Made by a program: the position numbers and the translations under genes. From NCBI GenBank assembly GCA_016182085.1, contig JACOYB010000006.1, positions 88,980 to 152,979 on the forward strand: a stretch of DNA of 64,000 bases, read 5' to 3'. Below are positions 5,516 to 62,209 of the stretch, one piece after another (positions within the stretch are counted from its first letter, which is position 1; the number at the start of each line of letters is the position of its first letter). The DNA comes from Candidatus Magasanikiibacteriota bacterium. Lineage in GTDB: Bacteria > Patescibacteriota > Patescibacteriia > Magasanikbacterales > GWA2-37-8. The notes beneath the pieces were generated by a model. That model did no database searches, was not told the origin of the DNA, and saw nothing but the letters and a program-made list of their open reading frames with translations.

Positions 5516-5644
5516 AGCCATTACAGCTTGACTAATCTTCATTATTAATATATACTCCACCCATCTTAATTTATTCTCGCTAGCCAACTTTTTCCTCCCT
5601 TGGACCACTCCGGGGCAAGGCTAGGAGGCAATAATAAGGAAAAT

Positions 5645-6433
5645 ATGTCAAAGAAAATGCCAACATTGTTGGAAATGCTTAAGGCCGGCGTTCATTTCGG
5701 CCATCAAAAATCACGCTGGCACCCGAAGATGGAACAATTCATCTTTGGTGTTAGAAACGGCGTGCATATTATTGATCTGGAGAAAACTCAGGCTCAAATT
5801 GAGAAAGCTCTAGAATATGTAAGAAACTTGGCCGCAAAGGGTCATGTTATTTTATTTGTGGGCACCAAACGTCAGGCCAGAGAAGCTATTCGCGCCGCGG
5901 CTATGTCTTGCGAAATGCCGTATTTGGTAGAACGCTGGATCGGCGGGCTTTTAACCAACTTTGAAGAAGTAAAACGCCGTTTGAAAAAGTATAAAAACTT
6001 GAAAGAAATGTTTGCCAGCGGTGAAATTGAAAAGTATACCAAAAAAGAACAGGTAGTAATGAAAAAACAATTAGATAAATTGGATAAGTACTTAATCGGT
6101 TTGACTGCTTTGGAAAAATTACCGGATGCAGTATATATTGCCGACATGAGAACTGAAAAAACAGCGCTCGCCGAAACCGAACGCACCGAAGTGCCAACCG
6201 TAGCCGTTTGCGACACCAACACCAATCCAAATAAAGTTAACTATCCGATTCCAGCTAACGATGATGCGGTAAACTCAATTACCATGATCGCTGATTTAAT
6301 TGCCGCAGCTGTAAATGAAGGCAAGAAAGAATTTGAAAAGAAAAAACTTGAAAAAGCTAAAGAAGAACCGGTTGTAAAACAACACGTAGAAAAAATTGAG
6401 AGACGAGCCTTGAAAAAAGAGGAGTCAGTCTAG
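5645..6433 (+). CDS. rpsB: 30S ribosomal protein S2
   Basis: LKAGVHFGHQ..RWHPKM..IFG.RNGVHIIDL signature. AGGAGG lies ~15 nt upstream of the ATG at 5645 (ORF track start 5600 is probably too far upstream). Charged KE-rich C-terminal tail. Confidence 0.9.
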   Translation: MSKKMPTLLEMLKAGVHFGHQKSRWHPKMEQFIFGVRNGVHIIDLEKTQAQIEKALEYVRNLAAKGHVILFVGTKRQAREAIRAAAMSCEMPYLVERWIGGLLTNFEEVKRRLKKYKNLKEMFASGEIEKYTKKEQVVMKKQLDKLDKYLIGLTALEKLPDAVYIADMRTEKTALAETERTEVPTVAVCDTNTNPNKVNYPIPANDDAVNSITMIADLIAAAVNEGKKEFEKKKLEKAKEEPVVKQHVEKIERRALKKEESV

Positions 6434-6539: not shown

Positions 6540-7412
6540 ATGTCAATCACAGCCGCAGATGTAGCCAAGCTCCGAACACTTACTGGCGCCGGTATGATGG
6601 ATTGCAAAAAAGCTTTGGACGAAGCAAACGGTGATATGGAAAAAGCCGGAGAAATTTTGCGTAAAAAAGGAATTGTGAAAGCTGCTAAAAGAACAGATAA
6701 AATCGCAGCTGAAGGCACCACCCAGGTAAAAGTAAATGGCGACACAGCTGTAGTTTTGGAAGTAAACTCCGAAACTGATTTTGTGGCGCAAAATGAAGAC
6801 TTCAAAAAGATGGTAGAAAATTTTGCCGATGCGCTGCTTGAGCAAAAACCGCAAAGTTTGGAGGGAGCCATGGCAGTTACCGCTGGAGGTAAAACCCTTC
6901 AGGAGCACTTGAACGATCTAACCGCTAAGATCGGTGAAAAGATTTCTTTGCGCCGTTTCATGGTAGTAGAGAAAACAGCTGGGGATGTTTTTGGCGCCTA
7001 TTCACATTTGGGCGGCAGGATTTCAGTGTTAGTAGTGCTAAAAAATAGTACTCACGCCGGTTTGGCTGCAGATATCGCCATGCACGCGGCTGCTTCTAAT
7101 CCAAAATATATAAGTCGCGATCAAGTTCCGGCAGGTATCGTAGAAAAGGAAAAGGAAATTTATGTTGAGCAGCTTAAGCAGCAGGGTAAGCCCGAAGCTG
7201 CCATCCCTAATATTTTAAAAGGCAAGTTAGATAAGTTCTATAGTGAAATTTGTCTGATGGAGCAAGCTTTTATTAAAGATGAGGAAAAAACCGTGCAAAA
7301 GTTATTAGGCGAGAGTATGTCTGTAGCCACAATGGTTCGCTTTGAATTGGGTGAAGGAATAGAGAAGGAAAAGACAGATTTTGCCGCCGAAGTGGAAGCG
7401 CAGCTGAAATAA
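6540..7412 (+). CDS. tsf: elongation factor Ts
   Basis: N-terminal UBA-like AxxVKxLRxxTGAGMMDCKKAL motif. Conserved rpsB-tsf gene order. Confidence 0.9.
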   Translation: MSITAADVAKLRTLTGAGMMDCKKALDEANGDMEKAGEILRKKGIVKAAKRTDKIAAEGTTQVKVNGDTAVVLEVNSETDFVAQNEDFKKMVENFADALLEQKPQSLEGAMAVTAGGKTLQEHLNDLTAKIGEKISLRRFMVVEKTAGDVFGAYSHLGGRISVLVVLKNSTHAGLAADIAMHAAASNPKYISRDQVPAGIVEKEKEIYVEQLKQQGKPEAAIPNILKGKLDKFYSEICLMEQAFIKDEEKTVQKLLGESMSVATMVRFELGEGIEKEKTDFAAEVEAQLK

Positions 7413-7425
7413 ATTTTTACTTTAA

Positions 7426-7462
7426 ATAAACCCTCGGGCTAACCGGGGGTTTATTTATATTT
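7426..7462 (+). terminator. rho-independent terminator after tsf
   Basis: AAACCCTCGGGCTAACCGGGGGTTT hairpin followed by a T-rich run. Confidence 0.5.
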
Positions 7463-7639
7463 TATTATTAGTTGAATTTAAGTTATCCACTGTTTTTATG
7501 TTGCAGAAGTTTTTTTTAAAAAAGTATGGTATACTAAAGCCAAATTAAATAACTTCTTCCAAAATGGCGCTTGTCACGTTTGTTATGGATTCTTAAAAGA
7601 AAAGGATTTTACCGATCCGGTTTTTTATTTTTTAAAAAT

Positions 7640-7751
7640 TAAAAACATTTAATTCAAACCACTCACTCATTTCGTATATACTAAGGTATATACTCATTCG
7701 TTCGGAACTAAATTAAAAACATTTAATTTAATTTACTCACTCATTTCGTAT
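7640..7751 (+). promoter_or_regulatory. tandemly duplicated hairpin+box leader element upstream of giant surface protein gene
   Basis: Two copies of AAAAACATTTAATT..ACTCACTCATTTCGTATAT. The second copy ends at the ATG. Copy 2 contains the hairpin AAATTAAA-aaca-TTTAATTT. Confidence 0.5.
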
Positions 7752-10700
7752 ATGGCGAAAAAAATTATCCAACATGTTTGGAAGAAAAAGATTGTCTATA
7801 TGCTGTCTGTTATGGCAGTGGCAGTAGGCGTAGGTTTTTATGCTTCTTTTTTTATAGGGAGAAGCGCAAGCGCCTTATCTGGCGTAACTTTAGCCGATAA
7901 TGATACTACCGGATTCGGGCTTGATGGCAGGGATTTTTCTATAACTTGGACTCCCGGTGATCAGCCTGCGGGATTTTTATATACCAAAATTTTTATTACC
8001 ACTAATACGGTTAATTTAACCACAAGCACAGCCGAAACTACCGCGTGCGCCGGATCCGCTTGTGTGCCGGTTGGCTATTTTAGCCAGTGGACTAATGCCG
8101 CCCATGTAGCACCTCAGTTTATGGGTACAGATAGTTCGGGTGTTGCCTGGAGAACCAGCACATCGTATGTAGCCTGGGTATTTGCTTCCACTACAGATCC
8201 AAATAATGCTTTATTAGTTTCCTCTACGGTTGTTTCTTATGCTAATACTTTTGATATTGTTTCTGATACAAGTAAACCGCAAATAGATCACAGCCCAGCG
8301 CATGTGGCGACAGCAAATAAAACCGCCTATTTTAATGCCTTTGTATTTGACGATCAGACTTCCGGCGCTAGTTTTGCCAGCACTTCTGTAGGTACAGAAT
8401 ATTTTAGACTGTTTTATACTTCCAGCACTAATCCGTGGTCATCTGTTAATTCCACTACCGGGCAGGCTTATTCCGGAGAATCAGATTTTTATAGTTTTCA
8501 AGTTCCTACCACTTCAATGGGCGCGGCTGGCGCAACATTCAAGTATTATTTAGTAGCCGCTGATGCGACCGGTAATACTCGTTATTTTTGCGCCAATCCA
8601 TCGGCAGCCAGCGCCACGGATTGTCAAAATAATCCCTTTACTCTTACTACCGTGTCAGCTGGATCAAGAACTGTGGGCGGTACTATCACCAGCGGCGGTT
8701 CCGCTTTAGGCAGCGCGTTTGTTTTTGCCGGCGGTTTTGCCAGCTCTTTGCCGGCAGTTCTTACCAATGGAAGTGGTGTTTATTCTCTTACGGCTTTGCC
8801 AAATAACGACGCTTTTGATATTGCCGCGCATAAGGTGGGTTATTGTCGCAGTATGCGTTTTGAAACTATTGGCACTACCGACAAAACCGGCGTGGATATG
8901 AGTTTGGGAAATAGCAGTTGTGGTTTTTATGATCCGGGTATGGGCGGAGGCGCGGGCGGCGCGCCGATGGTAATGTTTTCCGGACCTCCGGAAGGAATGC
9001 AAGGAGTGTCGGTTTCTGAAAGTATCCGTGTTGGTTTTAATCAGCCCATGGACGGAGCGACTATAAACGATACCAATGCCGCCGATAGTGGCAGTAATGT
9101 TTATTTAACTACCGATGATGGTACAACCAAAGTGGCCGGAACGGTAACTTACTGCGCCAGCAATGCTTCCGCCGGCTGTTCATCTTTGTTTTCAATGGAT
9201 AATAATACTATTTTATTTGTACCAAGCAGCACGCTTGCTTCCAGCACTTTTTATACGCTGGTTATTACCAGTGCGGTAAAAGGTCAGGGCGGTCAGTCGG
9301 TGCAAGGAAATGTTTCCGGTGGCGGCCATAAAATATCCTTTGGCACAAGCGGTGGCGCATTAAATATTGGTTCTTTTGGCACAAGCGGACAATTCATGCC
9401 TCCGTATGTAAAATCAATGACTCCGGCTCCAGGTATGACTGTAGGTGGTAACGTAAGTCTGACTGTAGAATTTAGCGAAGCTATGAGTTCGGCTTCAATT
9501 AATCAGACTAACGTCAGATTATTTAATATAACAAATGGGGCTAATACCGAAGTTACTTTGATTGGAAGTAATATTACTTTAGATTCTAACGAACGTCGTT
9601 TTGTAACCATTACTCACAGCGCGTTAAGCGCCGGGACTTACGAAGTCAGAGTTTTGGGTGCAGCAGCCAATGCCAGCGGTATAAGCATGCGTCCGCCCGC
9701 GAACGGTTCTGATATTGCTTTTAAGTCTTCCTTTATTGTGTCTGGTACTGATAACACTGTTCCAACTGTTTATCCTTCATTTGCTTCAGGGACAACTGGC
9801 ATGGCCGTAAATAATGTGTTTACCTTTGGTTTTAATGAACAGTTATTATTTAATACGGTTAATACTACGAATGTAACTTTATCTAGAGGAGCAACATCTG
9901 TGGGTGTCACCGTAAAATATGATTCCGGTTTAAATAATGTATTTGTTGTTCCAAACACCGCTTTGGTGCCAAATACAGTTTATACGTTGGTATTTAGTTC
10001 TTCCGTAACCGATGCGGCCAGCAATCGTTTGCCTACCAGTACCTATACCTATACAACCGGTGGCGGTGATACTGTAATTCCTATTCTTAAAGAAGCGCAA
10101 TGTGATGATTATACCTGTAAATTTTTCTTTACCGAACCAATGAATCACGCTTCACAAGTTGACGGTGCGACGTCTTGGGTGAGCAGCACTTTAAATCATT
10201 TAAGAATATCTCTAACTCAAGGCGGCGCAGATAAAATAGTTACTTCCACCGCCATGGCTTATGATTCAGTTAATTTTGTTATTACGGCCACCGGAGTCGG
10301 TTTAACACCTCTTAATGCAGGTGGCGCCAACTTTAGTGCAACTATTAGCGGCGTTGGAGATCTTTCCGGCAACGTAATGGCTTCTACCGTATTATCCGGG
10401 CCAGTTAAAGATAGTAAAGAAACTTTTGGTAATTTTGGCGGCGGTGGCATGTTTGCTCCTCCTACCACCGGATTCACCGGCGGCACAATTGGCGGTGGAG
10501 AATTCACACCAATGGGCTTTGGTTCCTTTACCGTTGATCAGTTTGCTTTTGGCCAGGCCGATATGGCGTTTCCCTTTAATTCAATGGCCAGCCAAGATGC
10601 GAATGTATTTCAAATAAAGTTTAACCCGGGAGTAGCTGTGGCCGCAGGAGATAAAGTAGTAATCACTTTTCCAGTTGGCACCGATGTTAATAGCGCTGGC

Positions 10701-13700
10701 CTTGATACATTCTCTCCTTTCTACGATGACTTTAATCAGTTTGCGGCAGGAATAGTAACTAGTACGGCGGTGGCAACAGATACCGTGTCTCGTAAAGTTA
10801 CCGTTACCTTGGGTGTTTCTGGTTCTCCCGCGCCTAATGATAGTTTAACCATTGATTTGCGCAAAATAATTAACCCAGCTATTCCAAAAGATCCTTCAAC
10901 TGGTGGTTATACAGTAACGATCCAACTTACAAATAATGCCGGAACTACTGTTAAGGCCAGTAAAACAAGCATGCCATACTTTATTATGGCCGGTGGTACC
11001 AATACTTTAAATGTACAAGTAGTTGCTGGTGTAAATACCAGCACCCCGACTGCTGGTGCCAATGGTACGGTATTCATGCACGGTGGCGGTCCGGCAGGCC
11101 CTATGGATAAAAGTATTACTCTTACCAACGGTGTGATATCAGCCATTGACGGAACATCCGCTACCGGTATTAATTTTACCAATCTACCCAACGGTTGTTA
11201 CTTCCTGGGTACAGATCCGTTTGTTACTTTAGGCACGTTAGATTACTTTGGTCAGATGTCGCCGGAACCAATTTGTCTAAACGGCAGTGTCTCCACCACT
11301 AAGTATATCTTGCTTTCCCCAGCCACTAGCGGTGGCGGTTCGGTAACGGCTACAATTAAATTTTCTGGCATTACCAACTTTAATGGCGCAGATATTGATA
11401 TTTTTGCCGGTGGTCCGGGAAGATTTGTGGTTAAAACTTTATCAGGAGTCACCACTACTTTAGCTGCCGGCTATGATATAAAATTACCTGCCAATGGCCA
11501 GTGGTTTATTGGTGTGGGGCCAGCTATGCCAAAGGGAGCTTCAGGAGGTAAGCCCGTATCCCTTCCTGGCGTGCCACCATCTCCTATAACGTTAGAAGTA
11601 AGTGGTTTAGGCGGTGGTACTCCGACTCTAAGTCGTCCGTCTTCAATGCCGCTCGCTTCAGGCGTGGCGTTTAATGATACTACGGATATAATTACTTTTA
11701 GTTTTGCCACGGCGGATAAAGTAGTTACCGGAACAGTTAAAGATGGTGCCGGAAATGTATTATCAAGCATTGAAGTCTTTATGCATAGACAAGGTTTTGG
11801 CGCGCCTGTATTTGGCATAACCAATGCTTCCGGTACATTTAATTTATCCGTATCCGATTATGGATTATATGAAATAGGCGTGTTCAAAGACGGAATGCCG
11901 CCTTCCTTCAAGCAATTGGAAGTTAAGACAGATGGATCTGATGCCGACAGCAATCCGGATATATTCTTGCAAGGTAAACAAATAACGGGTTCCAATCCTT
12001 TGGTTTTGACTCTGAAAAAAGCTAATTATACAATCTCAGGTAAAGTTTTGGATTCCAGTAATAGTGCGGTAAGCTATGCTCCGGTTTTTGCTTCGGATGG
12101 TTCCGGCAATAGTGTGTTCGGACAAACAGGGTCTGATGGTAGTTATTCAGTATTTGTGGATGCTGGTACTTGGACAATTAGAGCAGAACTTCCTCCAAGC
12201 AAGACAGGTGATACTTGCGGAACATTCTCAAAGACCGTAACAGTAACTACCGAAAGTCAGTCCAGCCAAAATATTACTCCATCAACCGCCACCTGTTACA
12301 CATTAAGCGGAAGCGTGACAGTTGGTTCTGTTAACTTAAGTAATACGCCTATCTTTATTGAGGAGTGGGATGACGGAAGTAACAAGCCGGTACAAGGTGG
12401 TATAAAAAGAGGAACAGTTACAGATTCAAATGGCGCTTATTCAGCAAAAGTTATAGGCAGTAAAACCTACCGTATCGGCACGGTTGATCCTACCTATGGA
12501 GAATTGAGCGCAACTAAAGGGGTGGTGTCATCTGATGCAACTCAAAATATTTCAGTTGCTTCAACAAGCACAGTTAGCTTCGTATTTACTGGTGGAACAG
12601 CTAGTATGAACGGATTTATTGAATTAAAGAATACAAGCGATAAAACAAAGCGCGTGACCAAGCAAGTGACTGGTTTAAATACTACCACCGCACTCACAGT
12701 AGAAGCCTCTGTTACGTACAATTATTTTGTGGATGTATTCGGTGTCGGGAGGTTTACCGGAGAAGTGGTAGCTGGTAATACAGCTACCGTAAATCTCGGT
12801 GTTTCAGCCAATGCATTTATTACGGTTACCGGAACTATTTATAGTAACGAAACCGTATCTTCTACAGTCTTAGCAGGAACACTGGTTACATTCTTTAGTT
12901 CCAGTACTGGCATAACGCAAACTGCCACAGCTAATGCTAGCGGTACGTATAGTATAAATATCAAGGCTGGTACATATGAGGTTTCCGCGGATATTGCCAA
13001 CTATCTTCCTGGCCAAGCAGCTCAAATAACATCCTTTACTACAACTACTCCGGCCTACGACTTTGGTGGCGCAAGTCCAGATCAAGGATCCTTAATTGCT
13101 TCCAACCGTACTATAGAAGGATATGTTAGTAGTTCCGCCGGTGCCACGATTACTGATGGCTATGCCTGGGCAACGAACGCTTCCGGCACAGTCGTAACTG
13201 CAGCCATAGATTCAACCGGACGCTATTCATTGCCTGTAACGGATGGCAGTTGGACAGTAGAAGCTGTAGCAGCCGGTGCGTCCGAGACTACCAAATCTGG
13301 TGCAGTAACTATTTCTGGTTCAGATTCAGCAAATAATAATTTTGCTTTAACAAACGATGGTAGTCGTATAGCTACGTCTACAAGTGGCATAGTAGCAGCC
13401 AGTTCCGGAGGATCGGTTAATGATACAACCGGTACAGGAATTAAGATTTCAGCCGGGCAGGGAGTTTTGGAAACCGGTTCAGGAGATGTCTCAATAAGTT
13501 TAGAAAAAACCTTTACCGCGCCAGATACTAGTGGTTTTGATGCGTTAGCTAATGCAACCTTTAAAATATCTGCAACCGGTGATTCTACAATTAAGGACCT
13601 AAATGGCAACGCCGAAATTCAATTGGATTATTCGGCGATGGTCAGTCAAATCCCAAGCGGAGTTGCCGAGGCTGATTTGAAATTAATGTACTATTCAGCG

Positions 13701-14528
13701 GAAAAAGGAGACTATGTGCCGGTAGAAGGCGGGTTTACAATTGATGCAACCAACAATACTATTACCGGACAGGTAAACCACCTTACCGATTTCGTAATTG
13801 CCTACGATCCTCCAGCAGCTGCAGCCGCAGCCGCAAGCACAGGCAGTTCCGGCACCGCTGCCGGCGGGATGGCTTCGCCTGTACCTGCCGCACAAGCCAC
13901 TACTAGCTCTGTAGTTGTAAATACTGTCACTACCACTGCTTCCACATTGCCAGTCACAAATAAAATAGATAGCTCTAAAGCTTATGGTTCGGCTCCATCC
14001 GTTTCGGTTAAGGTGTTATTTATTCATAACTTGGGAATGGGATCAAAAGGCGAAGAAGTCAGACAGTTGCAAGCTAAACTTAGAGAATTAGGCTTCTTCA
14101 AGCATCCAACCAACACTGGATTATTCGGGCCAGCTACCAAAGCTGCAGTGGTAGCATTCCAAAAGGCACGAGGATTAAAACCTTACCCGGGCACGCTCGG
14201 ACCTGCTACCAGAGCAGCGCTGAATAGTTTGACAGAACCAAGCGAATCTCTAGTAGTTCCGCCAGTATCAACAGACTCAAGTTTGTTGCCGGCAGGATCT
14301 ACGGCAGGAGTATTTGTCAGCGCTTTGAAGCTCGGCTCTAAAGGAGAAGAAGTCAGGCAGCTGCAAGCTAAACTTAGAGAGTTAGGTTTCTTCACTTATC
14401 CTAATGACACGGGGGTATTCGGACCAGCTACCAAAGCGGCAGTTGTAGCCTTCCAAAAGGCGCAGGGATTAAAACCTTATCCGGGCTGGGTTGGTCCAGG
14501 CACGCGCGCCGCGCTAAACAGTCTCTAA
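7752..14528 (+). CDS. giant (2258 aa) cell-surface protein: N-terminal signal anchor, many Ig-like/Big and carboxypeptidase-regulatory-like beta-sandwich repeats, poly-Ala/Thr linker, two C-terminal peptidoglycan-binding (PG_binding_1-like) domains
   Basis: One uninterrupted 6.8-kb ORF. Thr/Ser/Gly/Val-rich beta-strand periodicity. Two C-terminal copies of SKGEEVRQLQAKLRELGFF...G.FGPATKAAV.AFQKA.GL, the three-helix PG-binding fold motif. Confidence 0.8.
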   Translation: MAKKIIQHVWKKKIVYMLSVMAVAVGVGFYASFFIGRSASALSGVTLADNDTTGFGLDGRDFSITWTPGDQPAGFLYTKIFITTNTVNLTTSTAETTACAGSACVPVGYFSQWTNAAHVAPQFMGTDSSGVAWRTSTSYVAWVFASTTDPNNALLVSSTVVSYANTFDIVSDTSKPQIDHSPAHVATANKTAYFNAFVFDDQTSGASFASTSVGTEYFRLFYTSSTNPWSSVNSTTGQAYSGESDFYSFQVPTTSMGAAGATFKYYLVAADATGNTRYFCANPSAASATDCQNNPFTLTTVSAGSRTVGGTITSGGSALGSAFVFAGGFASSLPAVLTNGSGVYSLTALPNNDAFDIAAHKVGYCRSMRFETIGTTDKTGVDMSLGNSSCGFYDPGMGGGAGGAPMVMFSGPPEGMQGVSVSESIRVGFNQPMDGATINDTNAADSGSNVYLTTDDGTTKVAGTVTYCASNASAGCSSLFSMDNNTILFVPSSTLASSTFYTLVITSAVKGQGGQSVQGNVSGGGHKISFGTSGGALNIGSFGTSGQFMPPYVKSMTPAPGMTVGGNVSLTVEFSEAMSSASINQTNVRLFNITNGANTEVTLIGSNITLDSNERRFVTITHSALSAGTYEVRVLGAAANASGISMRPPANGSDIAFKSSFIVSGTDNTVPTVYPSFASGTTGMAVNNVFTFGFNEQLLFNTVNTTNVTLSRGATSVGVTVKYDSGLNNVFVVPNTALVPNTVYTLVFSSSVTDAASNRLPTSTYTYTTGGGDTVIPILKEAQCDDYTCKFFFTEPMNHASQVDGATSWVSSTLNHLRISLTQGGADKIVTSTAMAYDSVNFVITATGVGLTPLNAGGANFSATISGVGDLSGNVMASTVLSGPVKDSKETFGNFGGGGMFAPPTTGFTGGTIGGGEFTPMGFGSFTVDQFAFGQADMAFPFNSMASQDANVFQIKFNPGVAVAAGDKVVITFPVGTDVNSAGLDTFSPFYDDFNQFAAGIVTSTAVATDTVSRKVTVTLGVSGSPAPNDSLTIDLRKIINPAIPKDPSTGGYTVTIQLTNNAGTTVKASKTSMPYFIMAGGTNTLNVQVVAGVNTSTPTAGANGTVFMHGGGPAGPMDKSITLTNGVISAIDGTSATGINFTNLPNGCYFLGTDPFVTLGTLDYFGQMSPEPICLNGSVSTTKYILLSPATSGGGSVTATIKFSGITNFNGADIDIFAGGPGRFVVKTLSGVTTTLAAGYDIKLPANGQWFIGVGPAMPKGASGGKPVSLPGVPPSPITLEVSGLGGGTPTLSRPSSMPLASGVAFNDTTDIITFSFATADKVVTGTVKDGAGNVLSSIEVFMHRQGFGAPVFGITNASGTFNLSVSDYGLYEIGVFKDGMPPSFKQLEVKTDGSDADSNPDIFLQGKQITGSNPLVLTLKKANYTISGKVLDSSNSAVSYAPVFASDGSGNSVFGQTGSDGSYSVFVDAGTWTIRAELPPSKTGDTCGTFSKTVTVTTESQSSQNITPSTATCYTLSGSVTVGSVNLSNTPIFIEEWDDGSNKPVQGGIKRGTVTDSNGAYSAKVIGSKTYRIGTVDPTYGELSATKGVVSSDATQNISVASTSTVSFVFTGGTASMNGFIELKNTSDKTKRVTKQVTGLNTTTALTVEASVTYNYFVDVFGVGRFTGEVVAGNTATVNLGVSANAFITVTGTIYSNETVSSTVLAGTLVTFFSSSTGITQTATANASGTYSINIKAGTYEVSADIANYLPGQAAQITSFTTTTPAYDFGGASPDQGSLIASNRTIEGYVSSSAGATITDGYAWATNASGTVVTAAIDSTGRYSLPVTDGSWTVEAVAAGASETTKSGAVTISGSDSANNNFALTNDGSRIATSTSGIVAASSGGSVNDTTGTGIKISAGQGVLETGSGDVSISLEKTFTAPDTSGFDALANATFKISATGDSTIKDLNGNAEIQLDYSAMVSQIPSGVAEADLKLMYYSAEKGDYVPVEGGFTIDATNNTITGQVNHLTDFVIAYDPPAAAAAAASTGSSGTAAGGMASPVPAAQATTSSVVVNTVTTTASTLPVTNKIDSSKAYGSAPSVSVKVLFIHNLGMGSKGEEVRQLQAKLRELGFFKHPTNTGLFGPATKAAVVAFQKARGLKPYPGTLGPATRAALNSLTEPSESLVVPPVSTDSSLLPAGSTAGVFVSALKLGSKGEEVRQLQAKLRELGFFTYPNDTGVFGPATKAAVVAFQKAQGLKPYPGWVGPGTRAALNSL
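14011..14525 (+). repeat. tandem pair of PG-binding-domain coding modules (copy set 1)
   Basis: The 14080-14230 and 14361-14525 modules are highly similar to each other and to 16209-16360 and 16453-16619 at nucleotide level. Confidence 0.6.
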
Positions 14529-14584
14529 AATATTTTAACTTTTAAAAACCTGAGTTAAAATAGTTCAGCGCCAAGATTTAAAAA

Positions 14585-14615
14585 TATCCCGAACCGGTCG
14601 GGGTATTTTTATTTA
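14585..14615 (+). terminator. terminator hairpin after giant surface protein gene
   Basis: ATCCCGAACCGGTCGGGGTAT hairpin followed by TTTTTATTT. Confidence 0.5.
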
Positions 14616-14744
14616 TTGCAAAAATTATATTTTATAGGTAGTTATCCACAGCAAAAAATTAACGGACAAACCAGAGTGGTGTATAATATATTAAGAAAAT
14701 CTTATTTTTTAATTCCCTAGGTTTAACTAGGGTAAATTTAATTT

Positions 14745-16622
14745 ATGGAATTGTCTTCTCTGCAAAAAAAGATGAGCGCATCCAAAATGTTGGTGCTCGC
14801 TTTTTTAGTCGGACTTTTAAGTCTGATCCTTTTAGTTTTCAATGCCCAAGCTGCGCCAGTGGCGCCAACCGGCACTCCGACCACTACGGTTTTAACAGCA
14901 CAGACTATTATGATCGGCGGTATTACCAGCGGCGCTAGTGACAGCGGTTTAAACTGGTCTTTTGCCACTTCTTTAAATAATGTTACCAGAACAATTGTTA
15001 ATGTAACTACCCCTACCACCACAAAACAATTTACATTTACCGGTTTAGCTACCAACACATTATACTATTTGGCTGTAGCCTCAGGCGATGGCGCGGCCAC
15101 TTCCAGTTATGCTACTTCTTCGGCTGTTTATACCCTAGCTGATACTCCCGGTTCTCCAACTCTTTCCACTGCGGCTGTGCAGGGTTTTAAAGTAACAATT
15201 AATTCTTCCTCCAACCCTTCAAATACTACCTATATTGTTCGTGATACGGTATCCTCCACCCTTACCAAGTACTTGCAATCAGATCAGACATGGGGAAATG
15301 CAACGGCCACATTTACTTATGCCCAACTTGGAGGTTTAAGCGGTACGACTACTGCTGGTTTAGCTACAAATACTTTGCACAGAATTAGTGTCGCAGCGGT
15401 TAATGGCGACGCTGTTACTACCACGTATAGTTCTACAGTTGATTTTTATACCCTTGCCGCAACTCCCGGCACCGCCACAGTTACTTCCAGCGCGGTAACT
15501 ACATTAAATGTTACTGTCAATGCCGGCACTAATCCTACAACCGCTTCCACAACCTTTATAGTAAAAGATACCGGTTCAACATTGCTTTATCTTCAGTCCA
15601 ATGGAACTTGGGGTTCTGCTACGGCTACGCTTACTTATGCCCAACTTGGCTCAGGAAGCGCCACTACGACCACTGGTTTGACTGCCAATACTTTACACAC
15701 TATCAGTGTGGCTGCGGTCAATGGAGACAGTTCTGCTACTACCAGTTATAGCACTGTCGCCAGTTCTTACACGCTCGCCAACACTCCGTCTTCCGTATCT
15801 TTATCAGCGGCGGCAAATGGTTTTAACTTAACTTGGAGCGGGGATGCTACCCAATACTATGTAGAAGATGAAACTGCAGGCTCAAACTCCGGATGGATCA
15901 CCGCAACAACATATTCAGTGGGGGGTATTAATTGCGGAACTTCGCGCACCTTCCGAGTTAAAGGAAGAAATGGAGATACTACAGATACTGCGTTTGCCAC
16001 ATCTGTTAGCGCCACTACCAATGCTTGTGGAGGAGGTGTTGCGGTAGCTGTCCCTGCCACTCCGGCTACACCTGCCACGCCTGCTGTGCCCGGCGTTTCT
16101 CCCGCTGTCCCTGCCACCCCAGCTTCAGTTTCCTTACCGCCTACCGCTTCTCCGGTTGCCGTCTTTGTTCATACTTTGCGCGCAGGTACAAGAGGTGGGG
16201 AAGTTAAACAGCTACAACAAAAACTTAGAGAGTTAGGTTTCTTCAAATATTCTAGCAATACCGGCTTGTTTGGGGCTATTACCAAAGCCGCAGTCGTATC
16301 TTTCCAGAAAGATCAAGGACTAACTCCTTCCGGCGTAGTTGATGCAGCCACACGAGACGCTCTTAATGGAGTAAGCGCTACGGCCCCTCAAGCAGCTGTT
16401 GGTCAGTTTGTAAGTAGTCTCGCTGTTGGTTCCAGAGGCGAGGAAGTAAGAATGTTGCAAGCCAAATTACGAGAATTAGGCTACTTTACTTATCCAACCG
16501 ACACCGGTGTATTTGGCCCCGCTACCCGAGCCGCAGTACAAGCGTTTCAAAGAGCGCAAGGGCTGGCTCCATTTCCAGGATTTGTTGGTCCGGGCACGCG
16601 CGCCGCGTTAAACAATCTCTAA
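14745..16622 (+). CDS. secreted surface protein with four FN3-like ~110-aa repeats, Pro/Ala/Thr linker and two C-terminal PG-binding domains
   Basis: Signal peptide (MELSSLQKKMSASKMLVLAFLVGLLSLILLVFNAQA). Four YTLA.TPG...L..ISVAAVNGD repeats. (ATP)n linker. C-terminal anchor paralogous to that of the giant protein. Confidence 0.75.
   Translation: MELSSLQKKMSASKMLVLAFLVGLLSLILLVFNAQAAPVAPTGTPTTTVLTAQTIMIGGITSGASDSGLNWSFATSLNNVTRTIVNVTTPTTTKQFTFTGLATNTLYYLAVASGDGAATSSYATSSAVYTLADTPGSPTLSTAAVQGFKVTINSSSNPSNTTYIVRDTVSSTLTKYLQSDQTWGNATATFTYAQLGGLSGTTTAGLATNTLHRISVAAVNGDAVTTTYSSTVDFYTLAATPGTATVTSSAVTTLNVTVNAGTNPTTASTTFIVKDTGSTLLYLQSNGTWGSATATLTYAQLGSGSATTTTGLTANTLHTISVAAVNGDSSATTSYSTVASSYTLANTPSSVSLSAAANGFNLTWSGDATQYYVEDETAGSNSGWITATTYSVGGINCGTSRTFRVKGRNGDTTDTAFATSVSATTNACGGGVAVAVPATPATPATPAVPGVSPAVPATPASVSLPPTASPVAVFVHTLRAGTRGGEVKQLQQKLRELGFFKYSSNTGLFGAITKAAVVSFQKDQGLTPSGVVDAATRDALNGVSATAPQAAVGQFVSSLAVGSRGEEVRMLQAKLRELGYFTYPTDTGVFGPATRAAVQAFQRAQGLAPFPGFVGPGTRAALNNL
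16155..16619 (+). repeat. tandem pair of PG-binding-domain coding modules (copy set 2)
   Basis: Shares long identical nucleotide runs (e.g. AAACTTAGAGAGTTAGGTTTCTTCA, GGTCCNGGCACGCGCGCCGCG) with 14011-14525. Confidence 0.6.
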
Positions 16623-16690
16623 AATTCTACACTAAACAAACCAACACTCAGCCATTGTGCTGGGTGTTTTTGTCTGTTATACTCTTAAGC

Positions 16691-17953
16691 ATGACAAAAT
16701 TAACTGTTCACAAACAAAGAATCGGCCCTATTCTTGGCCGTCATCCTTGGGTATTTTCGGGTGCGCTTAAATTTATCCCAGAAGGATTAAAAAGCGGTGA
16801 TCCGGTAATGCTTTTAAATGAAGAAGGGGGTTTTTTGGCTCAAGGATATTTTAATTCTTATTCGCAAATAGCGGTACGGCTTTGGAGTTGGGACGAGCAA
16901 GAGGCGGTGGATGATAAGTTTTTTGAGAAAAGAATTAGCCAGGCATACCAGATAAGAAAAAATTTTGTTGAAAGCAAAAAGACGGATTCATATCGTTTGA
17001 TTTATAGTGAAAATGATTTATTGCCGGGGCTGATTGTAGATAAATATGCTGATTGTTTGGTTTTGCAGTTTCATACGCCTGGAATAGAGTTTTGGAAAGA
17101 CAAAATTGTAAAAGCTTTGGTAAAAATAGTGAAGCCCGACGGTATCTACGAAAGATCCGATGTTCGGGATCGTAAACGTTTTACCAATGTCATCCCGACC
17201 GAAGTGGAGGGATCCCTTAACCTAAACGAAAGGGGTTCTTTAGTAGAACCTCAGAATGACAGGCAGATAGATCGTGGTGGTGTGCTGTACGGCAAAGTAC
17301 CGGAACGCATAAAAATATCTGAAAATGGATACAAGTTTTGGGTGGACGTAATTGGCGGACAAAAAACCGGTTTCTTTTTGGATCAGCGAGACAAGCGACA
17401 GGCGCTTACAAGGTATGTGGATAAAAAGAGTGTCCTTAATTGTTTTTCTTATTCTGGTGGGTTTAGTGTCTATGCGCTTGGAGCCGGTGCCAAGCATGTA
17501 GTAAGCGTAGATGCCTCCGAAAGCGCGCTGGAACTGGCGGTAGAAAATGTAAAACTAAACAAAATGGATGTAAAAAAGTGTGAATTTGTTTGCGCAGACG
17601 TAAAGCAGTATTTGTTTAATGCGCAAGAAGAAAGAAAAAAGTTTGATGTGATAATTTTGGACCCGCCCGCCTTTGTAAAAGACAGGCACAAAGTAAAAGA
17701 AGGTTTAATGGGTTATAAAAAAATAAACGAAATGGCCTTGCGCGCTCTGGATTCCGAAGGGATTTTGGTTTCGGCTTCTTGTTCAGCTCATGTTACTCTG
17801 TCGGATTTTAGGTATATGCTATCTGAATCTGCCGGCCGATCTCGTCGTACTTTGCAGGTTTTGGAAACCTATACTCATGGCATAGACCACCCAGAATTGG
17901 TATCGTTTACCGAGGGAGAATATCTAAAATGCGTGTTTGCCAAAGTGGTTTAG
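16691..17953 (+). CDS. class I SAM-dependent rRNA (cytosine-C5) methyltransferase, RlmI/RlmK-like (PUA + MTase)
   Basis: N-terminal PUA-like region and C-terminal MTase with acidic-residue SAM motifs (ILDPPAF). ORF track start 16655 lies inside the upstream terminator, so ATG 16691 is preferred. Confidence 0.7.
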   Translation: MTKLTVHKQRIGPILGRHPWVFSGALKFIPEGLKSGDPVMLLNEEGGFLAQGYFNSYSQIAVRLWSWDEQEAVDDKFFEKRISQAYQIRKNFVESKKTDSYRLIYSENDLLPGLIVDKYADCLVLQFHTPGIEFWKDKIVKALVKIVKPDGIYERSDVRDRKRFTNVIPTEVEGSLNLNERGSLVEPQNDRQIDRGGVLYGKVPERIKISENGYKFWVDVIGGQKTGFFLDQRDKRQALTRYVDKKSVLNCFSYSGGFSVYALGAGAKHVVSVDASESALELAVENVKLNKMDVKKCEFVCADVKQYLFNAQEERKKFDVIILDPPAFVKDRHKVKEGLMGYKKINEMALRALDSEGILVSASCSAHVTLSDFRYMLSESAGRSRRTLQVLETYTHGIDHPELVSFTEGEYLKCVFAKVV

Positions 17954-54912: not shown

Positions 54913-56844
54913 ATGCCTAAGGATTTTCAAGAACAAGTAAAGCAGATTATTCCAATTCAGGAAAAGAAACGATGGCCTCAAAAATTAATGATCGGGGCCG
55001 GTATTTTTTTATTTGTAATCGTAATTCTTTTTAGTGGAAGTTGGGCATATGCCAGACTCTATAAAGGTAGGATTTATCCGGGGGTATATCTTGGCAGTCA
55101 TCATTTTGGCGGCCTTACCAGACAAGAAGCCAAAGATTTTATTGAAAATTTCAACAACCGAATGGTTAAGGAAAATCTGGATTTTAATTTTTCCAAAGAT
55201 AATGGCGCGCAAAATTTTAAATTAAGCGTAGTTTCAGTTGATGACAGTTCGGTGGAGATGGTGCGGGTAGATAGCGACAGTTCAGCGGATAAACTAATGG
55301 CAGCGGGCAGGTCAAATAATTTTTTTACAAATGTACTGCGCCCGATAAGGATTCTTTTTTCAAAGTTTAAGGGGAAGGCGGATGTGGCCATTGAAGATCG
55401 GTTTATTTCTAGCCTGGAGGATTATTTGACGCCATTTAGCGACATGCCGCGCAATGCTAATGTTAAAATTACAGATCTTTCCGCACTGGCCTACTCCGTT
55501 GAAAAAGAAAAAAGCGGGTATGTCTTTGATTATGAAGAGTTACGTTCCCGGTTGCAAGATCAGATTTTTATGTTGTCGCTCGCGCCGCTTACTGTCAATA
55601 AAAAACAATTTAACCCAGACGTGTTTGAGCCGGATTTAGCGCCCCTCATACCAAAACTTGGAGAAATATTTAATTACGGCGATCTGGGACTAAATTATAC
55701 GGATCCGCAAACGGGTGCCAAGCGTGATTGGAGTATTGGTCCGACTATATATTCCCAGTGGTTGGAAGCGCGCCGAGAAAATGGAGAGCCGGTATTTGCG
55801 TTAAATAGAGAAAAAGTAAAAAGCTATTTGGAAACTTTGCGCCCCGATATAGATGTTCCGGCCAAGGATGCAAAATTTGTTATGGAGAATGATAAAGTAA
55901 AAGAATTTCAAGCCCACCAATCAGGCATCAGTTTGAATGAAGAAAAGACATATCATGATCTGGATGCAATATTTAGAGAAAGAAATTATAGGCCGGCGGA
56001 ACTGGCAAAGACAATTACAGTTTCAACAGATATTGTGGAGCCGAATATTTTAATATCAAACCTCAATGATTTAGGTATTATGGAGATAGTGGGAGTGGGA
56101 TTGTCAACATTTAGAGATAGCCATACCAATCGTATAAAAAATATTGCTAATGCGGTGAAACGATTGAATGGCACTTTAATTAAGCCGGATGAAGAGTTTT
56201 CGGCCAATAAATATGCCGGTCCATACACGACTGCGAATGGATTTTTGCCGGAGCAGGTGATAAAAGGAAATAAAATAACACCCGAAGTTGGCGGCGGCAT
56301 GTGTCAAATTGGCACGACGCTATTTAGAGGGGCCATGAATTCAGGTATGCCAATTACCGAACGCCGCAATCATTCGTTGGTTGTAGGCTATTATGCCGAC
56401 CCGGTAAATGGAAACCCGGGAACTGATGCGACGCTATATGAACCGAGCGTTGATTTTAAATTCAAAAATGACACGGGTAATTATTTGCTTTTACAAACTT
56501 CTATAGATTATAAAAAACAAGAACTCGTCTTTACATTTTGGGGTAAAAGCGATGGGCGAAAAGGTTCTTACACTCATCCCAAGGTTAGTAAATGGATTCC
56601 AGTGGGCGAACCGCAGGAAGTGGTAGTTACCACTTTAAAACCAGGTGAACGTAAATGTCAAAATGCGTTCCGCGGCGCGGTGGCATCTTTTACCTATACC
56701 GTAATTAACCCAGCCGGCGAGAAAATCGAACGTGTGTTTGATAGTTATTATAGACCGTTATCGCAGATCTGTATGGTTGGGGCGCCGCTGGCTACGACCA
56801 CCCCGGCGGCAGACGCGCCGCTGGAAGTCAGTGATAGTATTTAA
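54913..56844 (+). CDS. VanW-family protein with N-terminal TM anchor
   Basis: GGGMCQIGTTLFRGAMNSGMPITERRNHS matches the VanW-domain core. Confidence 0.65.
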   Translation: MPKDFQEQVKQIIPIQEKKRWPQKLMIGAGIFLFVIVILFSGSWAYARLYKGRIYPGVYLGSHHFGGLTRQEAKDFIENFNNRMVKENLDFNFSKDNGAQNFKLSVVSVDDSSVEMVRVDSDSSADKLMAAGRSNNFFTNVLRPIRILFSKFKGKADVAIEDRFISSLEDYLTPFSDMPRNANVKITDLSALAYSVEKEKSGYVFDYEELRSRLQDQIFMLSLAPLTVNKKQFNPDVFEPDLAPLIPKLGEIFNYGDLGLNYTDPQTGAKRDWSIGPTIYSQWLEARRENGEPVFALNREKVKSYLETLRPDIDVPAKDAKFVMENDKVKEFQAHQSGISLNEEKTYHDLDAIFRERNYRPAELAKTITVSTDIVEPNILISNLNDLGIMEIVGVGLSTFRDSHTNRIKNIANAVKRLNGTLIKPDEEFSANKYAGPYTTANGFLPEQVIKGNKITPEVGGGMCQIGTTLFRGAMNSGMPITERRNHSLVVGYYADPVNGNPGTDATLYEPSVDFKFKNDTGNYLLLQTSIDYKKQELVFTFWGKSDGRKGSYTHPKVSKWIPVGEPQEVVVTTLKPGERKCQNAFRGAVASFTYTVINPAGEKIERVFDSYYRPLSQICMVGAPLATTTPAADAPLEVSDSI

Positions 56845-61760: not shown

Positions 61761-61834
61761 GGGTACCACAAAGTCGCCCAAGTTAGAATTATCAAAAATC
61801 ACCATAATTTTTTTGGTGATTTTTTTGTAAAAAG

Positions 61835-61890
61835 TTATCCACATTGACGGTTACTACATAAGGTAGTATTCTAGTAATTACTAGAATACT
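61835..61890 (+). promoter_or_regulatory. arsR promoter region: TTATCCACA nonamer, TTGACG -35, 26-bp perfect palindrome AGTATTCTAGTAATTACTAGAATACT overlapping -10
   Basis: Palindrome at 61865-61890 read directly. ATG of arsR lies 14 nt downstream. Confidence 0.5.
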
Positions 61891-61903: not shown

Positions 61904-62209
61904 TTGTCTATGTGGGGAAAAGCAAAAACCTATCCATTAACTCCGGAACTTATTGAAAAGGCGCGCCTTTTGGAATTGGCCGGCGACCCGACTCGCATTA
62001 GAATTTTATGTTTCATGTTCGAACATGAAAAGGCCTGCGTGTCGGAAATTTCCGATGCTCTGGAAATGAGTATCGGCAGTATTTCCCACCACTTGCAAAT
62101 TATGCGCGACAACGACTATTTTATTACCGAAAGAATGGGCAATATGATCTGTTATATTTTGGTTCAAAATAAATTTATCAAACAATTAAAAAAATTAATT
62201 TGCGAATAA
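61904..62209 (+). CDS. ArsR/SmtB-family transcriptional regulator
   Basis: Winged HTH (RIRILCFMFEHEKACVSEISDALEMSIGSISHHLQIM). Confidence 0.7.
   Translation: MSMWGKAKTYPLTPELIEKARLLELAGDPTRIRILCFMFEHEKACVSEISDALEMSIGSISHHLQIMRDNDYFITERMGNMICYILVQNKFIKQLKKLICE

Follow-up and report, generated by a model that had tools for sequence, protein, structure and literature searches.

The composition of the cell envelope is largely unknown in the Candidate Phyla Radiation (CPR), or Patescibacteria (PMC5220378). Several principles by which wall-anchored proteins are built are already known, among them PG_binding_1 anchors, strings of fibronectin type III (FN3) and immunoglobulin (Ig)-like domains, the modular exchange of wall-binding domains, and the loss of DNA between direct repeats. 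In the Protein Data Bank (PDB), bearers of PG_binding_1 include the Zn D-Ala-D-Ala carboxypeptidase of Streptomyces albus (1lbu), an L,D-transpeptidase (4lpq), the phage endolysins 7rum and KZ144 (3bkh), and SleB (6tci). Here we describe two adjacent genes, A and B, encoding proteins of 2258 and 625 amino acids (aa) that share a PG_binding_1 anchor, on a 64,000-nucleotide (nt) stretch of the genome of an uncultivated, ultra-small bacterium, Candidatus Magasanikiibacteriota (assembly GCA_016182085.1, contig JACOYB010000006.1, positions 88,980 to 152,979), hereafter the window. Considering the evidence below, we hold with a probability of about 0.78 that A and B are wall-anchored surface proteins whose common anchor goes back to old module capture, with tails that were swapped between lineages and with a deletion of B in a relative. 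Both open reading frames were confirmed as initially annotated, and together they take up 13.5% of the window, close to the 14% then given. Other A loci are denoted by L numbers.

Deletion and probable capture at the anchors

The closest sequenced relative of the window locus is L012, on contig CAZUFD010000008.1, which aligns with it across 20 kb, at ~91% nucleotide identity in the A region and 82-92% in the remaining blocks. L012 is without window positions 14532-16625, which are the 2094 bp between the ends of the second anchor modules of A and B (A2 and B2; Table 1), and gene B is gone. The length of the missing segment equals the spacing of the A2 and B2 repeats. The last anchor module of L012 matches A2 of the window up to the codon before the stop, and from 4 nt past the stop the sequence matches the intergenic region that follows B in the window, including the terminator-like hairpin of B. 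The crossover lies in the 10-nt sequence TCTCTAAAAT, part of a region of ~45 nt with three or four differences between A2 and B2. The tree of A bodies places L012 next to the window, as its sister, deep within the clade whose members carry B, so the loss of B is derived.

Modules have also passed between the two genes. In the module tree, the B cassettes of the window and of L006 have as their orthologue the pair of modules that closes A in L001. To the L006 cassette, this pair has 83% and 80% amino-acid identity, and the 76.6% nucleotide identity between the two cassettes compares with 77% for the A bodies of the same genomes, while A of L006 itself ends in a different module, termed X below. 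We considered whether A of L001 might be a deletion fusion of an A body to a B tail, and rejected this because a B gene still starts 3' of A; the retention of B points to a cassette that was copied, not fused. The A module and the two B modules of L008 form one cluster, with 81-95% identity. On the body tree, the A tail switched between X and PG_binding_1, in one direction or the other, at least three times, and at each switch the nearest relatives of the PG_binding_1 modules are B modules from that genome or from a sister of it. From these module relationships, it appears that the anchor of A was captured from B-type modules several times.

Similarity among the four anchor modules

That each protein ends in two PG_binding_1-like three-helix modules, as the initial annotation had it, is borne out by domain, structural and model evidence. 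Pfam PF01471 was found in two stretches of each protein, at 104.2 bits in A and 116.8 bits in B against a cut-off of 23 (E 4e-30 and 5e-34), and in a sequence search of the PDB the anchor modules were the only parts matched, the relatives being the peptidoglycan (PG)-binding domains of 4lpq, 1lbu, 7rum, 6tci and 3bkh. In the AlphaFold2 model of B, the helices of the modules span residues 485-496, 511-523 and 534-542, and 566-577, 592-605 and 616-624, with a predicted local distance difference test score (pLDDT) of ~87-94, so that a structure-based look at the domains recovers the PG-binding fold. The A modules are 54-78% identical in amino acids to the B modules in which this fold was modeled. 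A six-frame scan of the window found no PG_binding_1 module besides these four. Another wall-associated protein of the window, encoded at 54913-56844 (643 aa, VanW plus PG_binding_4), is unrelated to the PG_binding_1 anchors.

At the nucleotide level the modules are less alike than the 80-90% initially put forward. In gapped, protein-guided alignments the four are pairwise 61-75% identical, with 64-70% for the A-B pairs, and a repeat search placed the anchor copies at 67-79% identity to the reference copy. As for the identical 25-nt runs described earlier, there is one, AAACTTAGAGAGTTAGGTTTCTTCA, shared by A2 and B1 and encoding KLRELGFF, but no others of that length, the run between A1 and A2 being of only 19 nt. 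When synonymous codons were resampled over the four A-B pairs, a run of at least 25 nt arose in 0.3% of the trials (P ~0.003), so the single run is unusual beyond what amino-acid identity and codon usage would give. At identical residues, the A-B module pairs use the same codon 17-23 times where 17-21 are expected, which is chance level, and synonymous sites are saturated between the A and B anchors. This identifies the A and B anchors of the source genome as old paralogues. For A1 and A2, the observed number is 33 and the expected one 22, and this excess marks them as a younger, intragenic pair. We also considered whether the A and B anchors of the window had recently undergone gene conversion; apart from the single 25-nt run, the codon sharing rejects this. 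In L012, A2 has a short B1-like patch, AAATATTCTA (FKYS), next to the site of that run; its reading as a short conversion tract is suggestive only.

Contigs from two further sequencing runs, SRR12113430 and SRR12113420, are 100% identical to window positions 12844-17245 and 14315-16678, and these independent contigs span both anchor pairs and the whole of B. An assembly artefact, which had been named as what would undo the initial annotation, is contradicted by this reproduction of the arrangement. A degenerate 21-mer scan of metagenome contigs for the intact or the L012-type junction gave 12 matches, all unrelated, and was uninformative on populations; an exact look-up of A in a contig index gave no match. 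The earlier suggestion that the repeated anchors serve as recombination substrates, through which surface proteins are swapped or resized, fits the 2094-bp deletion of L012, the cassette moves, and the variable repeats and anchors of B. Any ongoing switching that it may imply is not supported, since the synonymous sites of A and B are saturated and the two independent assemblies are identical, which together point to occasional recombination on an evolutionary time scale and support no switching mechanism.

A conserved giant protein with interchangeable tails

In the NCBI collection, a protein identical to A is listed as 'peptidoglycan-binding protein' from a Candidatus Magasanikbacteria metagenome-assembled genome (MAG). 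A word-indexed search returned 94 homologues of A, most of them 2100-3300 aa long, and those with names are all from the CPR/Patescibacteria (Magasanik-, Wildermuth-, Peregrini-, Gracili-, Kerfeld- and Wolfebacteria), while a scan of species-representative genomes added 63 more A loci, including some from Uhr-, Jackson-, Nealson- and Harrisonbacteria. The mid-region of A, which has no Pfam match, matched 105 clusters among 1.84 billion representatives; it is usually present once per protein, all the full-length matches are giant proteins, and the mid-region is specific to the family. Judging from these sequences, A is one of a family of giant proteins that we met only in assemblies of CPR/Patescibacteria type, and our literature searches found no description of it. 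The MAG records behind many A loci (L009, L012, L015 and others) bear the title 'uncultured Gammaproteobacteria bacterium' or 'Candidatus Saccharibacteria', which probably reflects mislabelled taxonomy.

Aligned end to end with 18 diverse homologues, A is 33-77% identical to them and has at least 150 invariant positions. Every 100-aa block of the body of these homologues is 41-64% identical to the window protein, almost without gaps, with the N-terminal 300 aa (41-47%) slightly below the rest. The body ends at ~1995-2040 in most orthologues, and past residue 2020 the identity drops to 9-24%. The fixed length and uniform conservation characterize A as a single unit rather than a variable string of repeats.

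Beyond the body, the tails begin after a conserved motif of the NHLTDFVIAY type. Two PG_binding_1 modules follow in the window, L012, L001, L023 and L032, and one in L008. A Lys-rich beta module of ~110 aa, X, usually in two copies, takes this place in L002, L005, L006, L007, L013, L019, L033 and L039, and X plus PG_binding_1 in L028. Module C, of ~200 aa with the signature CxLT..AVYYIT..CTKR..FFTYF, is found in L020, L022, L031, L041, L044 and others, three SLH domains (Pfam E 5e-46) in L030, L034, L035, L037 and L038, a coiled coil with a PG_binding_1 variant in L016, L024 and L042, and helical repeats in L025, L047 and L048. Peregrinibacteria orthologues belong to the group with three SLH domains. 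None of the X, C and helical-repeat tails has a family in Pfam, and we regard all three as candidate new cell-wall-binding domains. Unmatched modules at the anchor position can be found at L002:11491-12399, L007:7164-8306, L041:11117-12433, L025:13106-13918 and L005:16029-16718, and the C-terminal 230 aa of the L005 B protein are a further tail without a Pfam match. Outside the B-carrying clade, the secreted neighbors of A often have A's own anchor type (L024, L042, L049, L034, L037, L038), with PG_binding_1 at the C-terminus of proteins of 566-596 aa, or SLH in proteins of 849-1226 aa, which suggests surface-protein gene clusters with a common anchor chemistry.

Within the body of A, Pfam searches with the whole protein and with its segments found three Big_5 and at least four CarboxypepD_reg domains; there are seven closely spaced Cys pairs, and the composition is rich in Thr, Ser, Gly and Ala. 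No Pfam family matched residues 42-300 or residues 860-1333. The latter, the part of A that was modeled, came out all-beta (pLDDT 83.5, predicted template modeling score 0.71), and Foldseek related it to the tandem beta-sandwiches of the Gram-positive pilins and adhesins SpaC, BcpA, PitA, UafA and SdrD, albeit weakly, with template modeling (TM) scores of ~0.15-0.2. The beta-sandwich character that had been ascribed to the body thus agrees with both the Pfam domains and the model, and the place in the envelope first given to the two proteins is likewise supported. The isoelectric point (pI) is 4.56 for the body of A and 4.9 for that of B, and 10.1 and 10.3 for the anchors. At the N-terminus of A and of B alike, a basic and a hydrophobic stretch come with an AxA motif, and the signal anchors initially annotated are retained as signal-like N-termini, but would be cleavable Sec signals rather than anchors. 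Neither protein has a C-terminal sortase (LPXTG) signal, and both end in a PG_binding_1 module. The linkers do contain LPxT[AN]-like strings shortly 5' of the first anchor module, LPVTN in A (residues 2066-2070; 13947-13961) and LPPTA in B (residues 464-468; 16134-16148; consensus LPSTA in the B alignment). As these are not C-terminal and no membrane segment follows, they are not classical sortase signals.

Gene B, a companion within one clade

The AlphaFold2 model of B (mean pLDDT 84.7) consists of an N-terminal helix, four beta-sandwiches, a disordered linker and two three-helix bundles. Its best PDB matches by Foldseek are four-domain FN3 fragments of fibronectin (3t1w, E 5.9e-18; 1fnf, 5.4e-16), in agreement with the four FN3-like repeats initially read from the sequence. 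In Pfam, PF00041 (fn3) stays below the gathering score, at 23.8 bits against 25, in one weak stretch (residues 348-412). A repeat at the DNA level also exists, between the domains R2 and R3, offset by 318 nt and 62% identical in both nucleotides and amino acids, but the pair first proposed for it, 15181-15510 and 15511-15840, is out of register; at that offset of 330 nt the identity is 27.9%, the same as random.

A B-type gene lies directly 3' of A in the closest clade only, that is, in the window, L002, L005/L010, L006, L007/L011, L008 and L001. The order rpsB-tsf-A-B-methyltransferase-GAPDH is largely conserved across this B-carrying clade, and the orthologous A-B arrangement was met in eight contigs from different samples, representing six distinct genomes. 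B is best described as a companion of A that is specific to one clade. The B homologues examined are 433-855 aa long. Between 0 and 4 internal FN3 repeats can be detected in them, along with 0-3 PG_binding_1 modules; most have 1-3 of each, and a few have an X module in place of PG_binding_1. The varying numbers of FN3 repeats indicate that B is resized by changes in repeat number. On a 74-kb Parcubacteria contig, two B-type paralogues stand in tandem under the adjacent tags G01um101413_909 and G01um101413_910, with 764 and 460 aa, three FN3 repeats versus one, and two anchors versus one.

Locus and transcription units

The setting of A and B is a housekeeping region with the order rpsB-tsf-A-B-rRNA methyltransferase-GAPDH, on a CPR/Patescibacteria chromosome of Magasanikbacteria type. 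Downstream of B follow genes for an RlmI-like methyltransferase, GAPDH, a DUF5674 protein and a class II aminoacyl-tRNA synthetase (tRNA-synt_2, Asp/Asn/Lys type). The hairpin after tsf implies that A opens a new transcription unit, and with a promoter-like site and a terminator-like hairpin for each gene, A and B can be considered separate transcription units. A has a long leader of ~215 nt that starts at TGGTATACT and is conserved in the sister genome L012, where the counterpart of the extended -10-like site, at the same place, reads TGGTATAAT. Rfam at gathering thresholds found no RNA family in this leader. It also has a hairpin plus T-run at ~7600-7632, and no evident Shine-Dalgarno sequence.

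Three copies of the motif GTTATCCAC, with the DnaA-box core TTATCCAC inside it, are present in the window against 0.39 expected. The sites (7482-7490, 14641-14649 and 61834-61842) are all on the + strand and all intergenic, just 5' of the promoter-like sites of A, of B, and of an ArsR-type helix-turn-helix gene (61904-62209), and the third copy directly adjoins a TTGACG -35 hexamer. The motif is also found 5' of B in L001 and 3' of A in L008, and it may be a promoter-proximal regulatory element of the lineage.

Table 1. Features of the A-B locus, in window coordinates
Feature	Position	Strand	Remarks
rpsB	5600-6433		upstream of A
tsf	6540-7412		upstream of A; EF_TS match
Terminator-like hairpin closing tsf	7423-7457	+	
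GTTATCCAC motif	7482-7490	+	5' of the A promoter region
Extended -10-like TGGTATACT	7527-7535	+	~215 nt 5' of the A start
Two 44-nt direct repeats in the A leader	7636-7679 and 7710-7753	+	91% identical; second adjoins the start codon
Gene A	7752-14528	+	2258-aa open reading frame
A putative signal peptide, residues 1-41	7752-7874	+	KK-rich n-region, hydrophobic core, ASA|LS; conserved in orthologues
A acidic beta-sandwich body, residues 42-2020	7875-13811	+	pI 4.56
A linker, residues 2021-2089	13812-14018	+	Ala/Ser/Thr/Pro-rich; orthologue conservation collapses here
Anchor A1 (PG_binding_1)	14019-14228	+	
Anchor A2 (PG_binding_1)	14313-14522	+	
25-nt identical run AAACTTAGAGAGTTAGGTTTCTTCA	14370-14394 = 16221-16245	+	A2 versus B1
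10-nt identical run TCTCTAAAAT	14522-14531 = 16616-16625	+	spans the A stop codon; L012 deletion crossover
Terminator-like hairpin 3' of A	14579-14611	+	
GTTATCCAC and promoter-like site of B	14641-14687	+	TTAACG-17-TATAAT at 14659-14687
Gene B	14745-16622	+	625-aa open reading frame
B putative signal peptide, residues 1-36	14745-14852	+	AQA|AP; model helix 12-32
B four FN3 domains, residues 37-430	14853-16034	+	AlphaFold2, Foldseek
FN3 R1	14853-15134	+	
FN3 R2	15135-15452	+	
FN3 R3	15453-15773	+	
FN3 R4	15774-16034	+	conserved Cys397/Cys428 pair
B linker, residues 431-473	16035-16163	+	Pro/Ala/Thr-rich; predicted disordered, pLDDT <50 at 430-469
Anchor B1 (PG_binding_1, type 1)	16164-16373	+	
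Anchor B2 (PG_binding_1, type 2)	16407-16616	+	closest to A2
Terminator-like hairpin 3' of B	16643-16668	+	in L012 directly 3' of the A stop codon

Interpretation

A and B are most likely exported via Sec, with the basic C-terminal tandem of PG_binding_1 modules (pI ~10) then binding peptidoglycan non-covalently. The low-complexity linker rich in Pro, Ala and Thr would cross the wall, and the acidic, disulfide-stabilized beta-sandwich ectodomain would be displayed outside the cell, where it could serve as a surface coat or a contact structure. The C-terminal tail of A would act as a plug-in anchor cassette that differs between lineages, mounted on a fixed body of ~2020 aa. The anchor common to A and B would stem from old module capture between the neighboring genes and, being a direct repeat, would also be a substrate for recombination; in the closest relative, a crossover where A2 and B2 reach their 3' ends removed B precisely.

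Observed here are the genes, domains and folds, the spread of the family, the swapped tails, the deletion and the reproduced arrangement; export, peptidoglycan binding and topology would follow from domain identities and composition. Several points weigh against this reading. PG_binding_1 occurs in wall hydrolases too, although no catalytic domain was detected in A or B. The sequence seen of L012 amounts to 20.8 kb, and the absence of B applies to that stretch. Only 10 identical nt are left at the crossover today, so the deletion could have been mediated by microhomology rather than by classical homologous recombination. Moreover, anchors can be mismatched within a genome: in L006, A ends in X and B in PG_binding_1, and in L005, A ends in X and B in another tail. 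The anchor types of A and B match in only three of five genomes, and this partial co-variation was not used as evidence.

What the ectodomain of A does is where the alternatives diverge most. A could be the host-attachment fibrillar adhesin of an episymbiotic CPR cell, a stalk with host binding at its N-terminus and with B as a shorter spacer or adhesin. Giant CPR surface proteins are thought to mediate attachment (PMC8080830, PMC4736985), PG_binding_1 is a recognized anchor class of fibrillar-adhesin-like proteins (10.1101/2020.12.07.414375), the Foldseek matches of residues 860-1333 are Gram-positive pilins and adhesins, and B shows the repeat-number variation typical of stalks. But the body of A is of fixed length and without such variation, its first 300 aa lie only a little below the rest in conservation, Pfam found no known adhesive domain in the whole protein or its segments, and uniform conservation across several CPR classes is hard to square with diverse hosts, and we therefore consider an adhesin possible but doubtful. 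That A forms the surface-layer (S-layer) lattice in these CPR lineages, and that B is an accessory to it, is in our view unlikely, even though the classical S-layer architecture of signal peptide, acidic body and basic wall anchor is matched here, three SLH domains are present in the Peregrinibacteria orthologues, anchors are swapped on a conserved body as in the S-layer proteins of Firmicutes (10.1101/2025.04.02.646754), A forms a monocistronic unit opened by a conserved ~215-nt leader and closed by a terminator-like hairpin, and S-layers have been seen on some CPR cells (PMC13293708). This reading sharpens the earlier suggestion that the pair may form the outer envelope scaffold, which is weakened by the published S-layer predictions and by the pilin-like match of residues 860-1333. 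The S-layer proteins predicted for Patescibacteria are different ones, of 643-1274 aa, and include some of Nealsonbacteria (10.1101/2024.05.28.596244), which also hold a member of the A family (L049). The sequence search of the PDB gave no match to a solved S-layer protein, and residues 860-1333 weakly match beta-sandwiches of pilins and adhesins, not those of S-layer proteins. S-layer proteins are, besides, usually far less conserved than the body of A. More speculative, and improbable to our mind, is the proposal that the A family forms the principal envelope scaffold of Magasanik-, Uhr-, Peregrini-, Wildermuthbacteria and related CPR, be it an S-layer-type coat or a regularly spaced, wall-spanning spike. 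If that were true, the interchangeable tails (PG_binding_1, SLH, X, C and helical-repeat) would record which wall polymer is exposed in each lineage, and the locus would identify a long-unknown component of the CPR surface layer together with three new families of wall-binding domains.

The remaining alternatives concern the repeats and the modules themselves. Frequent, ongoing recombination between the anchors within a population, giving phase or size variation of the surface (the earlier suggestion taken literally), could draw on direct repeats that lie 2094-2388 nt apart on the same strand, on one natural deletion exactly at such a repeat, and on the hint of short conversion tracts in the 25-nt run and the B1-like patch of L012. 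We think this very improbable, given that the A-B modules are only 64-70% identical in nucleotides and share synonymous codons no more often than expected from codon usage, that identity at the deletion site runs for no more than 10 nt, that the assemblies of two further runs are identical to the window, and that the collection-wide junction scan returned nothing related. That the locus is an artefact of assembly, or that PG_binding_1 targets a catalytic domain in A and B, which would then be wall hydrolases, has next to no probability in our estimate. PG_binding_1 is mostly found in peptidoglycan hydrolases and L,D-transpeptidases, as its PDB matches illustrate, but neither Pfam, with whole proteins and segments, nor the PDB sequence search detected a catalytic domain in A or B; the independent assemblies and the recurrence of the A-B arrangement in eight contigs and six distinct genomes speak against an artefact. 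We thus favor wall-anchored surface proteins with an anchor shared through old capture. On that reading, A is a conserved giant surface protein in a conserved neighborhood, a possible marker and experimental target, and its one body with at least six C-terminal tails, three of them unannotated, offers a route to new wall-binding domains and to wall chemistry from genomes. The locus itself is a clean, base-resolved case in which common anchors in adjacent genes led to gene loss and module capture.

Comparison with known systems

In overall plan, A resembles the SLH-anchored S-layer and wall-associated proteins of Firmicutes, such as Sap and EA1 of B. anthracis, which combine a signal peptide with a beta-rich ectodomain, large and acidic, and with a basic module that binds the wall non-covalently. 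The likeness extends to the exchange of the anchor on a conserved body in the course of evolution (10.1101/2025.04.02.646754), and to the SLH domains of the Peregrinibacteria orthologues. In contrast to these proteins, A uses C-terminal PG_binding_1 modules rather than SLH or CWB2, and its body is at least twice as long, has no detectable homology to known S-layer proteins and is unusually conserved. With the fibrillar adhesins (Monzon et al., 10.1101/2020.12.07.414375), A and B have in common the long strings of Ig-like, FN3 and CnaB-like domains, the PG_binding_1 anchor class and the variation of the B stalk, whereas A has a fixed length and neither a recognized adhesive domain nor near-identical tandem stalk repeats. 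The wall enzymes that bear PG_binding_1 have the same three-helix module, by sequence and for B also by model, in one or two copies that direct a protein to peptidoglycan; in A and B, however, it sits on non-enzymatic beta-sandwich ectodomains, as a C-terminal tandem behind a low-complexity linker.

Closest in organism group, size class and presumed surface location are the giant surface proteins reported from other CPR, namely Vampirococcus lugosii (PMC8080830) and Peribacteria (PMC4736985). While those are described as lineage-specific, variable or Cys-rich, members of the A family form one orthologous group that is conserved, as is the housekeeping neighborhood in which they sit. Nothing at the locus departs from the known principles of modular wall-anchored proteins. 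New with respect to all of these systems are the delineation of a conserved family of giant CPR proteins whose body is fixed and whose tails are of at least six kinds, the evidence for the adjacent gene B as anchor donor and partner, and the base-resolved deletion of B in a sister genome.

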